A stretch of DNA of 64,000 nucleotides from Escherichia coli (GTDB lineage: Bacteria; Pseudomonadota; Gammaproteobacteria; Enterobacterales; Enterobacteriaceae): assembly GCF_013122565.1 (NCBI RefSeq), contig NZ_CP053258.1; one strand, written 5' to 3'. Position 1 is the stretch's first letter; the number at the start of each line of letters is the position of its first letter. Shown one piece after another: positions 52,949-57,003 of the stretch. A program made the position numbers and the translations under genes. Below the pieces are notes generated by a model, which was given only the letters and a program-made list of their open reading frames with translations, had not been told where the DNA came from and ran no database searches.

Positions 52949-53812
52949 ATGAAACAACACCAATCGGCGGATAATTCTCAGGGCCAGCTTTACATCGTAC
53001 CAACACCAATCGGCAATCTGGCGGATATCACCCAGCGTGCGTTAGAGGTATTACAGGCCGTTGATCTGATTGCCGCCGAGGATACTCGTCACACCGGTTT
53101 ATTGCTGCAACATTTTGGGATTAATGCCCGGTTGTTTGCACTGCACGACCATAACGAACAACAAAAAGCCGAAACGCTGCTGGCGAAGCTGCAAGAGGGG
53201 CAAAACATTGCGCTGGTTTCCGATGCCGGAACGCCGCTAATTAACGATCCTGGCTACCATCTGGTGCGTACCTGCCGTGAAGCGGGGATTCGCGTGGTGC
53301 CGCTACCCGGGCCGTGTGCTGCTATCACTGCGTTAAGCGCCGCAGGTTTACCCTCTGACCGTTTCTGTTACGAAGGCTTTTTACCTGCCAAATCAAAAGG
53401 CCGCCGTGATGCGCTAAAAGCCATTGAAGCGGAGCCGCGCACGCTGATTTTTTATGAATCTACCCACCGTCTGTTAGATAGCCTGGAAGATATCGTTGCG
53501 GTATTAGGCGAATCCCGCTACGTAGTTCTGGCGCGTGAGCTCACCAAAACCTGGGAAACCATTCACGGCGCGCCTGTTGGCGAGCTGCTGGCGTGGGTCA
53601 AAGAAGATGAAAACCGTCGCAAAGGCGAAATGGTGCTGATTGTCGAAGGCCATAAAGCGCAGGAAGATGACCTGCCTGCTGATGCCCTGCGCACGCTGGC
53701 GCTGCTACAGGCAGAACTGCCGCTGAAAAAAGCGGCGGCGCTAGCCGCAGAAATTCACGGCGTGAAGAAAAATGCGCTGTATAAGTATGCGTTGGAGCTG
53801 CAGGGAGAGTGA
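52949..53812 (+). CDS. rsmI: 16S rRNA C1402 2'-O-methyltransferase
   Basis: 287 aa [38 protein letters not shown]. Confidence 0.96.
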
Positions 53813-53923
53813 TATCTCTCCGTGGCCCCGTTTGAAGAACCCAGGGGCCGCCTGCTAAACAATTAGTCTTTTTAGTGCATACCGCGCCGTAAATCCTCGC
53901 TCCGTGCGGACTGACCTCTTAAA

Positions 53924-54880
53924 TCAGGGGGCTAGTTGCGTGGTATAGTTGGCAGCGACCCAACGATAACCCTTGCTGTCGCTTTTAACATGCCCCAGGC
54001 CTGGGAATGAGATATGGGCTGCTGCCACCCAGTAACCACCCTGAGCCGCATGTTTTAATACTCGCTCACGGGTTTTTACCGCTTGCTGTTGATCCACATC
54101 GAAATGTATCGCCACGTGAGGATCCGGCATCTGCACTGCTTTGGCATGAATAATATCGCCCCACAACACTAGCGTCTGGCCTTCACTCTCCACTGTGTAC
54201 ATCACGCTACCAGGAGTATGGCCGGCCGTTGAGGTGGCTGCAATGCCTGCAATTACCGTTGCCGGTGCGATAAAGGTCTTCAGCTGACCTGCGTTGATCA
54301 CTGGGCGGATGGTCTGCTCCGATTCGACAAAGGTGTGCTTCTGACTATCTTCTACTTGCGAGGCATTCGCCGGATTAAGCCAGAAATCCGCATCTTTCTG
54401 CTCAACGAATACCTGGGCGTTAGGGAAAGCTGGTTTGCCCTGACGGGAGATGCCACCAGAGTGGTCGGCATGAATATGCGTCAGCAGCACGGCATCAATG
54501 GTTTCAGCCGGATAGCCAGCAGCTGCCAGGTTTTCAAGCAATTGGCCTCCATTGTTGCCAAACAGATCGCCCGCACCGGCATCAACCAACACGCGCTGCT
54601 GGCCATTATCAATAACAAATGCATTGATTGAAGTCTCCGTATGGGGTGTCAGTGAATCCTTTGCCAGTTGTTGGCGCAGTTTATCGGCAGGAATGTGGGT
54701 GAGTAATTTATCTAGCGGAATTGTCACCGTGCCGTCGGAGACAGCGGTAATACGTAGTTTGCCCAATATCATGCGGTAATAGCCCGGTGCTTGTGTATCA
54801 GGAGGGGGCACAGGTATAGGCGTTGCTAACGCATTTACGGAGAGTACCAGTGAGGTTACCAGAGTCAGCAAAAGTTTCAT
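53924..54880 (-). CDS. Secreted metallo-beta-lactamase-fold hydrolase, MPH-like (putative lactonase / phosphotriesterase-type enzyme)
   Basis: 318 aa ORF; N-terminal signal peptide MKLLLTLVTSLVLSVNALA; MBL motif THIHADHSGG (HxHxDH) plus downstream His/Asp ligand motifs AGHTPGS, WGDIIH, AAHISFPG; N-terminal APGYYRM...ITAVSDGTV region recalled as characteristic of methyl parathion hydrolase family; not present at this locus in K-12. Confidence 0.75.
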   Translation of the reverse strand: MKLLLTLVTSLVLSVNALATPIPVPPPDTQAPGYYRMILGKLRITAVSDGTVTIPLDKLLTHIPADKLRQQLAKDSLTPHTETSINAFVIDNGQQRVLVDAGAGDLFGNNGGQLLENLAAAGYPAETIDAVLLTHIHADHSGGISRQGKPAFPNAQVFVEQKDADFWLNPANASQVEDSQKHTFVESEQTIRPVINAGQLKTFIAPATVIAGIAATSTAGHTPGSVMYTVESEGQTLVLWGDIIHAKAVQMPDPHVAIHFDVDQQQAVKTRERVLKHAAQGGYWVAAAHISFPGLGHVKSDSKGYRWVAANYTTQLAP

Positions 54881-54890
54881 TCTATCCTCG

Positions 54891-54904
54891 ATAAGTTCTG
54901 TTAT
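54891..54904. promoter_or_regulatory. Candidate LysR-type regulator binding dyad in divergent promoter region
   Basis: ATAAGTTCTGTTAT (ATAA-N6-TTAT inverted repeat, T-N11-A-like) midway between the two divergent start codons. Confidence 0.3.
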
Positions 54905-54961
54905 TACAGTACGGGCACCAGTATCCTTTTGCGAATAACATCATTCAAATTGATTAATATA

Positions 54962-55906
54962 ATGAACTCTATCAGAGAAAATGATTTAAACCGGGTCGAC
55001 CTCAACCTGCTAATCGTGCTCCTGGTGCTACATCGAGAGGGGAGCGTTTCACGTGCAGCCAGCAAGTTACACTTGGGGCAGCCAGCAGTTAGTGGCGCGC
55101 TGGCACGGCTGAGAGAAATGTTTAACGACCCGTTATTTGTGCGCACGGCAAAGGGGATGGCACCGACACCACGTGCACAAGCTCTGGTTACGGCACTACT
55201 GCCGGTGATGGATCAAATGCAGCAGGTGATTTTTCAAAGGCCGGTTTTTACCCCAGAACAGGATCAGCATACGTTTCGCCTGGGGATGAGTGACTGGGTC
55301 GAACGCTGGCTGATGCCTGGAATGATGGCAGATATAGCCCAAATGGCACCCGGGATTCGCTTACAAGTCACGGCATCCGATCCTTTCCAGGATGGCGAAA
55401 AAGTGCAACAGGATAAGGTGGACGTAGCAATCTCCGTCGTGGAGCAGGTGCCCACCGGAGTGGAACGAGAAGTGATCACTCAAATGGGGTTTTGCACGAT
55501 GTGGCATCCGCTCCAGTTATCCCTCACTTCACCGTTAAGCCTTGATGTATATACTGAAACCGATCATCTTTTGGTCTCTTATCGCGGTGCCAGCAGTAGC
55601 TCTATCGATCTGATTTTGGCTGACTGCGGGCGTAAAAGGGAAGTGCGTTACGTCACGCCAAATTTCTCATCGTTACCGTTGATGTTGAGACAGATACCGG
55701 CTTTAGCGACCGTACCGCAGGGGCTGGCAGTAGGCTGGGTAGCCGATTATGGGTTGCAATTTGCCGATGTCCCACTCGAGGTTCCTGCTTTTACGCTCTC
55801 TCTACTCTGGAATAAGCGGCGTAATAATGATGAGGCGCTGCGCTGGTTACTGGAGAAATTACGCACACGAATGCAGGGCTGGGAGATGTTTTCAGAATGC
55901 GTTTGA
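54962..55906 (+). CDS. LysR-family transcriptional regulator
   Basis: ORF 54929..55906 (TTG) trimmed to ATG 54962; N-terminal HTH (VDLNLLIVLLVLHREGSVSRAASKLHLGQPAVSGALARLRE) and LysR substrate-binding domain; divergent from the MBL-fold gene. Confidence 0.8.
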   Translation: MNSIRENDLNRVDLNLLIVLLVLHREGSVSRAASKLHLGQPAVSGALARLREMFNDPLFVRTAKGMAPTPRAQALVTALLPVMDQMQQVIFQRPVFTPEQDQHTFRLGMSDWVERWLMPGMMADIAQMAPGIRLQVTASDPFQDGEKVQQDKVDVAISVVEQVPTGVEREVITQMGFCTMWHPLQLSLTSPLSLDVYTETDHLLVSYRGASSSSIDLILADCGRKREVRYVTPNFSSLPLMLRQIPALATVPQGLAVGWVADYGLQFADVPLEVPAFTLSLLWNKRRNNDEALRWLLEKLRTRMQGWEMFSECV

Positions 55907-56183
55907 AAACGTAAAAATGTGAACAGGAAATAAGGGCTTGCTAAATTAAATAACTCCTGTCAGATAATTTAGCGTATAGGTGCAATCGTGCCCTAATGGC
56001 CGTTAAACATGTCTTGCAGCTAATTGGGTTAATAAGTATTTGAATCGCTTTTCAGGATTAGTGAGTCGTATGAGGGAGCTGTGCTCTGTCACCATGTACC
56101 TGATATTATGTATTTTTTGTCAACCTTTAGGTTTACATTGTGATGGAATAATAGCGGGGGACGATCAAACTGAACCGTAATGA

Positions 56184-56218
56184 AGTGCTCAAAAGACATG
56201 AGCACTTTTCTTATTTTT
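56184..56218 (+). terminator. Orphan plus-strand intrinsic terminator in LysR-agaI spacer
   Basis: AGTGCTCAAAAGACATGAGCACT followed by TTTCTTATTTTT. Confidence 0.6.
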
Positions 56219-56235
56219 CCGGGCTAAGAGGGATG

Positions 56236-57003
56236 TTAATGACGACAAATCTCATCAATCATGCATGTGAAATGGTTATGCAGCCATAAAAATGAAGCCG
56301 GGATAGCGGTAGAGACTTTAGCCGTGAGAAAACGTTCTGTCGCATCCTGCTTTCCTTCGCCAGTCACCAGTAACAAAACTTCGCGGGCATTGAGAATATC
56401 TTTCAGGCCTAAGGTGATCCCACGTGTCACGGGGCGACCCGCGGTTTTTAACATCTCATGTTGCTGTGTTCTGGCATCAAGATGACTGATATGGCAGGCC
56501 GGTTGCAGGCTTTCTCCCGGTTCGTTCAGCCCAAGGTGACCGTTTTTCCCCAATCCGAGAACGCATAAATCCAGACCGCCTTTGCGCGCAATCAGGTTCG
56601 TTACCCGTTCGCACTCTGTCTCATTTATCTCTTCGGAGCGAAAGCTGATGAGCTGGTCTTCACGTAGCCCCAGCGGCTGCACGATATGCTGTTGCAGGAA
56701 AGTTTCGCAGGTGCCAGGCATCGTTAATGGCAGATCCACCCATTCGTCGAGCTTCACGAAGGTGAGCTGGCTGACATCAACCTGCTGCTGGTGGATTTTT
56801 TCTACCAGATAATGATACGTCAGTAATGGCGTCGCTCCGGTCGCCAGGCAAATCACGGCATCCGATTTACTACGGATCACGGCCAATAAATATTCGCTGG
56901 CACGTTCACTTAACGCCGTATAGTTTTCAACTTGCTGAAGGGTTTGCACAGGATGAAATTCCTTAAGTAAAGAGGCACCGCCAGAAGCAGTGCCTCGTTC
57001 CAT
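56236..57003 (-). CDS. agaI: Galactosamine-6-phosphate deaminase/isomerase (NagB-like)
   Basis: 255 aa ORF; NagB-family; last gene of aga operon, stop adjacent to agaD. Confidence 0.9.
   Translation of the reverse strand: MERGTASGGASLLKEFHPVQTLQQVENYTALSERASEYLLAVIRSKSDAVICLATGATPLLTYHYLVEKIHQQQVDVSQLTFVKLDEWVDLPLTMPGTCETFLQQHIVQPLGLREDQLISFRSEEINETECERVTNLIARKGGLDLCVLGLGKNGHLGLNEPGESLQPACHISHLDARTQQHEMLKTAGRPVTRGITLGLKDILNAREVLLLVTGEGKQDATERFLTAKVSTAIPASFLWLHNHFTCMIDEICRH

Follow-up and report, generated by a model that had tools for sequence, protein, structure and literature searches.

A probable nod-box-type LysR control region between divergent genes for an MBL-fold hydrolase and a LysR-family regulator in Escherichia coli

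In the window, which is the whole stretch of 64,000 nucleotides analyzed here from contig NZ_CP053258.1 of Escherichia coli, the genes for an MBL-fold hydrolase and a LysR-family (LTTR) regulator diverge from a short spacer, which raises the question of which sequence at this junction could serve as the operator. The spacer (54881-54961) is 81 bp long with 33% GC and separates the start codon of the hydrolase (CAT at 54878-54880, minus strand) from that of the regulator (ATG at 54962-54964, plus strand). The original prediction, which was made from the sequence alone, had placed the two starts at 54880 and 54962 with a gap of about 80 bp, and the open reading frames agree with it, as do the RefSeq/PGAP boundaries of both genes, which are identical in a strain with 99.7% identity. 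We propose, with a probability of roughly 0.7, that a canonical nod-box-type LTTR control region extends over the spacer and the initial 25 bp of the regulator ORF and would work by the mechanism outlined below. The coordinates of the features are collected in Table 1.

Table 1. Features of the hydrolase/LysR junction, given as positions in the window.
Feature	Position	Strand	Basis or reading
MBL-fold hydrolase, 318 aa	53924..54880	-	ORF and PGAP annotation; presumed regulated target
Hydrolase Shine-Dalgarno GAGGA	54885..54889	-	4 nt before ATG; read from the sequence
Dyad of the original prediction, ATAA-N6-TTAT, ATAAGTTCTGTTAT	54891..54904	.	Chance level, unconserved, outside the operator
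Zone of two candidate regulator promoters	54898..54941	+	Putative
Predicted hydrolase -10, GATACT	54920..54925	-	Register conserved, 14-15 nt from box A
Box A, ATCATTCAAATTGATT (ATC-N9-GAT = ATCA-N7-TGAT = T-N11-A)	54940..54955	.	Candidate promoter-proximal activation site (ABS)
Predicted hydrolase -35, TTGAAT	54943..54948	-	Inside box A
Box B, ATTGATTAATATAAT (AT[T/C]-N9-[G/A/T]AT, T-N11-A)	54949..54963	.	Candidate second ABS sub-site
LysR-family regulator, 314 aa	54962..55906	+	ORF, PGAP and Pfam
Box C, ATCAGAGAAAATGATT (ATC-N9-GAT)	54971..54986	.	Candidate recognition site (RBS) inside regulator codons 4-8 (I-R-E-N-D)

In RefSeq, the gene order is rsmI, "MBL fold metallo-hydrolase" on the opposite strand, the divergent "LysR family transcriptional regulator" and agaI. 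The hydrolase/LysR pair is an accessory module between rsmI and agaI that about 1% of the complete E. coli genomes carry: region 53800-56100 was matched at 95-99.7% identity in 77 of 5426 such genomes, with at least 80% of its length covered in 63 of them. The 141-bp control region was found at 98.6-100% identity in 63 complete E. coli genomes. An O145 strain carried two SNPs in the control stretch, at 54937 and 54965, both of which were outside the arms of the boxes described below. An Rfam scan of 53700-56300 returned zero matches at E <= 1 and so gave no evidence of an RNA element. A literature search with dihydrocoumarin and LysR together gave no papers, nor did any publication on the locus turn up.

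What lies between rsmI and agaI varies among E. coli strains. The site is occupied by the yraHIJK fimbrial operon in K-12, by an HTH/RelE-ParE toxin-antitoxin pair in strain 23CRST027 and, between 53813 and 56235 of the window, by the hydrolase/LysR pair. The O145 strains differ downstream of the pair, where they have a PTS IIB pseudogene, a MalY/PatB gene and a malX-like gene in place of agaI. The gap between the LysR stop codon and agaI is 329 bp of non-coding sequence, and its last 122 bp (56114-56235) are 91.8% identical to another E. coli strain, in which the matched stretch overlaps an annotated RelE/ParE-family toxin gene beside agaI. No intact ORF is left in 56114-56235, which looks like a remnant of an earlier occupant of the site. 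In Erwinia rhapontici H1, the pair, with an 81-bp spacer and intact boxes, is on a contig labeled as an unlocalized plasmid, which hints at horizontal mobility of the module.

The hydrolase matches Pfam Lactamase_B and contains the metal-binding motif HxHxDH (THIHADHSGG). Its N-terminus reads by eye as a Sec-type signal peptide, MKLLLTLVTSLVLSVNALA, in which the twin-arginine motif is absent. The closest solved relatives are the reconstructed dihydrocoumarin hydrolase (DHCH) AncDHCH1 (5hif/6c2c), to which residues 23-313 align end to end with E = 1.1e-89, and methyl parathion hydrolase (MPH; 1p9e), with E = 6e-80. DHCH and MPH enzymes are separated by five positions, i.e., 72, an indel at 193, 258, 271 and 273 (PMC8222346), and the hydrolase is of the ancestral DHCH type at each of them (L72, no insertion at 193, H258, I271 and F273 in MPH numbering). 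By full-length homology and by motif, the hydrolase belongs to the DHCH/MPH family of MBL-fold lactonases (PDB 6c2c, 5hif and 1p9e; PMC8222346), although, in difference from those enzymes, it is known here from its sequence. An assignment to the AidB family of quorum-quenching AHL lactonases as an equivalog was rejected, as the score of 202.3 bits against NCBIfam NF047979 is below the curated cutoff of 360. To our knowledge, no MPH gene is under the control of a LysR regulator.

The regulator has the two domains of an LTTR, HTH_1 at residues 14-73 (E = 3.5e-17) and LysR_substrate at residues 99-304 (E = 1e-20). Its nearest NCBIfam families are BsrA (197.6 bits; cutoff 480) and LeuO (112 bits; cutoff 262), both of which it matches below cutoff, so that the protein was not accepted as an equivalog of BsrA (PA2121; NF050187, curated cutoff). 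The NodD family was not among the best 25 of the 39 NCBIfam families matched.

A scan for relatives of the hydrolase, with one genome per species, yielded 80 loci. In 41 of them, a homolog of the regulator (43-83% identity) was directly upstream on the opposite strand, and a 42nd locus had a partial LysR match at this place. The Enterobacterales with the pair included Erwinia, Winslowiella, Yersinia rohdei, Kosakonia, Phytobacter, Pantoea, Citrobacter, Serratia, Rahnella, Cedecea, Trabulsiella, Xenorhabdus, Franconibacter, Pectobacterium and Samsonia, while five loci were from Betaproteobacteria (Parachitinimonas, two from Chromobacterium, Aquabacterium and Massilia). The spacer was 72-91 bp long in the Enterobacterales, up to 139 bp in the Betaproteobacteria and exactly 81 bp in ten. 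The divergent adjacency of regulator and target gene that typifies LTTR-controlled promoters is thus kept in 41 orthologous loci. The compact divergent layout that had been proposed for the junction holds, and the conservation of the pair in 41 species of two classes strengthens it.

The original prediction had also proposed that an ATAA-N6-TTAT dyad in the spacer is a candidate LysR box, which would control both promoters. The dyad does exist, and the pattern occurs three times in the window versus 0.52 expected; its right arm also overlaps a candidate regulator -35 (CTGTTA, 54898-54903). The pattern was, however, chosen after the sequence had been seen, and dyads of this kind are expected by chance: with 4-bp arms and spacers of 3-12 bp, five are found in the 81 bp against a shuffle mean of 3.8, and at least one occurred in 96% of the shuffles. 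Among nine loci with an 81-bp spacer in the same register, the dyad is intact in only one, that of Erwinia aphidicola, which is the closest; the other eight keep 0-3 of the four complementary arm positions with no compensating changes, while boxes A and C are kept at these loci. The dyad furthermore reads T-N10-A, not T-N11-A, and would occupy about +9 to +22 of the predicted hydrolase leader, just before the Shine-Dalgarno sequence and beyond the usual range of LTTR footprints. The conserved boxes are 36-95 bp to the right of the dyad, and box C is inside the regulator ORF, beyond the interval 54881-54961 that the prediction had covered. We consider it extremely improbable that this dyad is the LysR box.

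Further analyses revealed what is conserved instead. The window and the 41 loci (42 sequences) were aligned with box A as an anchor; the alignment is ungapped from about 54920 into the regulator gene and gives the consensus ATCAnTCAAATTGATT ... ATCAnaGAaAAtGATTTt. On average, a position carries 1.68 bits of information in box A and 1.64 bits in box C, compared with 0.50 bits in the 14 bp that adjoin box A on the left. The dyad proper is ATCATTCAAATTGAT (54940-54954) in box A and ATCAGAGAAAATGAT (54971-54985) in box C, and the two boxes, which each read ATCA-N7-TGAT and T-N11-A, have a common 16-bp core, ATCAnnnAAAnTGATT, with dyad arms. In all 42 sequences, box A and box C are 31 bp apart, i.e., about three helical turns, despite the varying spacer length (72-139 bp) and the varying position of the regulator ATG, which is 3 nt further to the right in most orthologs than in the window.

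In the 64 kb, the 16-mer ATCANNNAAANTGATT is matched perfectly at two sites only, boxes A and C, and the looser ATCA-N7-TGAT was observed six times in the window versus 1.09 expected, a count that none of 100 shuffles reached. A single copy of the tandem pattern AT[CT]-N9-GAT-N16-AT[CT]-N9-[GA]AT marks the gene junction in each of the 41 paired loci and in the locus with the partial LysR match, and the 38 hydrolase loci without the regulator have none. Loci whose regulators have as little as about 43% identity still retain boxes A and C. The control region therefore contains the ortholog-conserved LTTR box (T-N11-A with dyad arms) in two copies and, as box B, in a third that is degenerate.

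Box B, the weakest of these boxes, has 6 bp in common with box A, is 22 bp from box C and shows its pattern in 42 of 42 sequences. Its invariant AT (54962-63) belongs to the start codon in E. coli and, in most orthologs, to a trinucleotide [G/A/T]AT, mostly GAT, that is 5' of the ATG. Because the box is degenerate and shares sequence with both the ribosome-binding region and the start codon, it may have been conserved for other reasons. In 54881-55000, a search for dyads found a single one with 5-bp arms (TCATT-N15-AATGA at 54941, which spans boxes A and B) and none with 6-bp arms. Boxes A and C, with the weaker box B that overlaps the former, are likely the operator of the LysR regulator.

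It could be argued that the conserved blocks are no operator at all, such that box C is conserved as coding sequence for I-R/K-E-N-D-F and box A as a -35 element plus translation initiation signals, or that both are bound by a different factor. Box C is indeed coding and its conservation is partly confounded by this, and box A overlaps promoter and ribosome-binding-site functions. The synonymous positions of box C are, however, frozen when compared with nearby conserved codons. Its Asp codon is GAT in 41 sequences and GAC in none, versus 28 GAT and 14 GAC at a conserved Asp five codons downstream (Fisher p = 3e-5), and its Asn codon is AAT in 35 and AAC in one, versus 22 and 20 at the control codon (p = 5e-6), where both tests treat related sequences as independent and are only indicative. 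The third-position information content is likewise 1.30 bits in box C versus 0.66 bits over the next 23 codons. A coding explanation would also have to account for two boxes that follow one 16-bp pattern with dyad arms, for a 31-bp spacing that stays invariant while the start of the reading frame moves and for boxes that are found only where the regulator gene is present and that have the motif of a textbook LTTR box. We therefore regard a non-operator origin of the boxes as very unlikely. The presumed recognition site in the first codons of the regulator seems to constrain synonymous sites across two bacterial classes, which is mildly unusual.

To the left of box A, a promoter-like element of the hydrolase is found in a fixed register. 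A hexamer nAnnnT is in the -10 register, within 1 nt, in 42 of 42 sequences, and its A2 and T6 are always kept; the variants include GATACT, CATAAT, AATAAT and GATCAT as well as three that match at 3/6 positions (GACACT, GAACAT). The information content of the hexamer is 1.14 bits versus 0.50 bits in the adjacent 14 bp. A hexamer that starts with TTG is 17-18 nt from this -10 in 41 of the 42 sequences. Transcription of the hydrolase would accordingly be predicted to start near 54913, with a 33-nt leader that ends in the GAGGA Shine-Dalgarno sequence, at the position of which the orthologs have CTC/TCC-rich blocks. With the positions counted from this predicted -10, the centers of the boxes would be at about -34 (A), -43 (B) and -65 (C).

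In the published LTTR architecture, an RBS with T-N11-A is near -65 and an ABS is near -35, and a dimer slides by about one helical turn upon induction (PMC8407307). The predicted centers of the three boxes would match this layout. By analogy, the regulator, presumably as a tetramer, would anchor one dimer on box C (about -65) and place the second on box A (about -34), within which lies the weak -35 hexamer for leftward transcription of the hydrolase. Upon binding of an effector, the promoter-proximal dimer would slide by one helical turn to box B (about -43), and this slide would free the -35 hexamer such that the periplasmic lactone hydrolase could be transcribed. With boxes A to C occupied, the start region of the regulator gene itself would be covered, which would result in negative autoregulation. 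The ATAA-N6-TTAT dyad would play no part in this mechanism. With an enzyme of the dihydrocoumarin-hydrolase type as the presumed target, a reasonable and likely effector would be an aromatic lactone or the product of its hydrolytic ring opening.

The same boxes could also serve a regulator that acts purely as a repressor, in which case boxes A and C would form an operator that covers the -35 of the hydrolase and the regulator's own start, and the effector would release the protein with no activation. The -35 hexamer is inside box A, the hydrolase promoter (TTGAAT-17-GATACT) is weak but not hopeless and the related BsrA mainly represses at T-N11-A sites (PMC8407307). The predicted -65/-35 geometry with an overlapping box B one turn away in 42 of 42 sequences is, however, an arrangement of the activator type, and suboptimal -10 and -35 hexamers that are kept across 42 sequences are typical of activator-dependent promoters. 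Pure repression thus appears unlikely, although less so than the two alternatives discussed above.

It had been left ambiguous whether the regulator starts at TTG 54929 or at ATG 54962. The in-frame TTG is real, but the ambiguity resolves to ATG 54962, which is the supported start because PGAP uses it, no ortholog starts at the position of TTG 54929 and a GGAG precedes the homologous ATG. Several orthologs lack any in-frame alternative. The GGAG is 5-7 nt 5' of the homologous ATG in most orthologs, and translation from ATG 54962 places the start of the HTH_1 domain at residue 14. TTG 54929 was accordingly rejected as a start.

Neither TTG 54929 nor ATG 54962 has a Shine-Dalgarno sequence in front of it; the original prediction had noticed that neither has a strong one. 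The Shine-Dalgarno sequence of most orthologs, TTGATTGGAG, gives way at 54955-54961 to TTGATTAA in E. coli, Erwinia, Winslowiella, Yersinia rohdei, Phytobacter and related loci (compared with loci L011-L030 and L042). Given that TTGATTAA is found only in the E. coli/Erwinia/Phytobacter group, the weak Shine-Dalgarno sequence is real but reflects a lineage-specific loss. Translation of the regulator may therefore be weak in the TTGATTAA clade, and the loss of the Shine-Dalgarno sequence from the E. coli copy may mean that expression of the regulator is poor or that the circuit is in decay in this lineage.

It should be noted that six loci from Pectobacterium and Samsonia (L031-L035 and L060) have no ATG at the usual start. 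Their only ATG is inside box C (ATCATGGAAAATGAT), and the upstream in-frame TTGs fall in box B. The start codon of the regulator in these loci would itself be within the presumed operator.

For the regulator's own promoter, neither of two candidates is conserved across all clades examined. Conservation of the first (CTGTTA-N18-TATCCT, 54898-54927) is confined to the E. coli/Erwinia/Phytobacter clade, and the second, a -10 TAACAT (54936-54941) that abuts box A, has the form TAnnAT in 28 of 42 sequences. Either candidate would put the boxes at or downstream of the transcription start of the regulator, which would be consistent with autorepression, and the suggestion that the regulator is autoregulated is probably right as a general reading. 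The only match in a consensus promoter scan was ATAACA-17-TATAAT (54935-54963, plus strand), which is near-consensus for sigma-70 with 10 of 12 positions. It was rejected as the regulator promoter: its -10 overlaps the ATG, so that transcripts, if it were active, would begin after the start codon, and it is unconserved outside the closest clades. This sequence arose where most orthologs have the GGAG ribosome-binding site.

The sequence ATC-N9-GAT is the nod-box or LTTR box of Goethals et al. (1992), as cited in PMC2794183 and PMC5596368. As with the nod box bound by NodD in rhizobia, ATC-N9-GAT dyads recur at the junction on one face of the helix, upstream of a divergent target gene, the regulator's own start is in or beside a box and plant-type phenolic inducers are plausible. 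The locus is nevertheless not a NodD system, in that it has the repeated ATC-N9-GAT palindromes but neither a NodD ortholog nor nodulation genes: the regulator has BsrA and LeuO as its best NCBIfam families, both below cutoff, and the presumed target is a single periplasmic hydrolase gene. The element also differs in being 46 bp long, with spacings of 31 bp and 22 bp, and in including the first codons of the regulator.

The layout likewise resembles that of BenM, AtzR, CbnR and DntR (PMC8407307; PMC4730206), which have T-N11-A near -65, a site over the -35 and an overlapping sub-site in a divergent arrangement for which autoregulation is expected. It differs from them in that the positions in the window are derived from a predicted -10 and that the candidate RBS is in regulator codons 4-8 and not intergenic. 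With this RBS placed inside the coding sequence, the intergenic region is therefore only 81 bp. The operator of MexT of Pseudomonas aeruginosa, ATCA-N5-GTCGAT-N4-ACYAT, to which binding has been confirmed experimentally (PMC2794183), has a nod-box-like ATC-N9-GAT core and an ATCA left arm in common with the boxes in the window, to which LTTR binding is predicted. The inner and flanking bases are different, however, and the core ATCAnnnAAAnTGATT is present in the window in two full copies; in addition, MexT has a regulon, whereas the regulator in the window has one evident local target.

A more far-reaching reading is rather doubtful. In this reading, the recognition site would be permanently embedded in the first codons of the regulator, where the peptide I-(R/K)-E-N-D-F would be a dual-coded by-product of the operator, retained for the sake of DNA binding and fixed in both bacterial classes. 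The regulator would then be a NodD-like sensor of plant aromatic lactones of the coumarin/dihydrocoumarin type and would induce a periplasmic lactonase for detoxification, in plant-associated Enterobacterales and sporadically also in E. coli.

The locus is probably an ordinary LysR-type divergent control region, and the current understanding of LysR regulation is unchanged by our results. A chance dyad is replaced by a phylogenetically supported operator map with three boxes, a predicted promoter and a settled start codon, for a regulator/lactonase pair that is uncharacterized, that is widespread in plant-associated Enterobacterales and whose E. coli carriers include O145:H28 strains. The locus is also a small, clean example of how a transcription-factor site would limit the choice of synonymous codons at the start of the factor's own gene.
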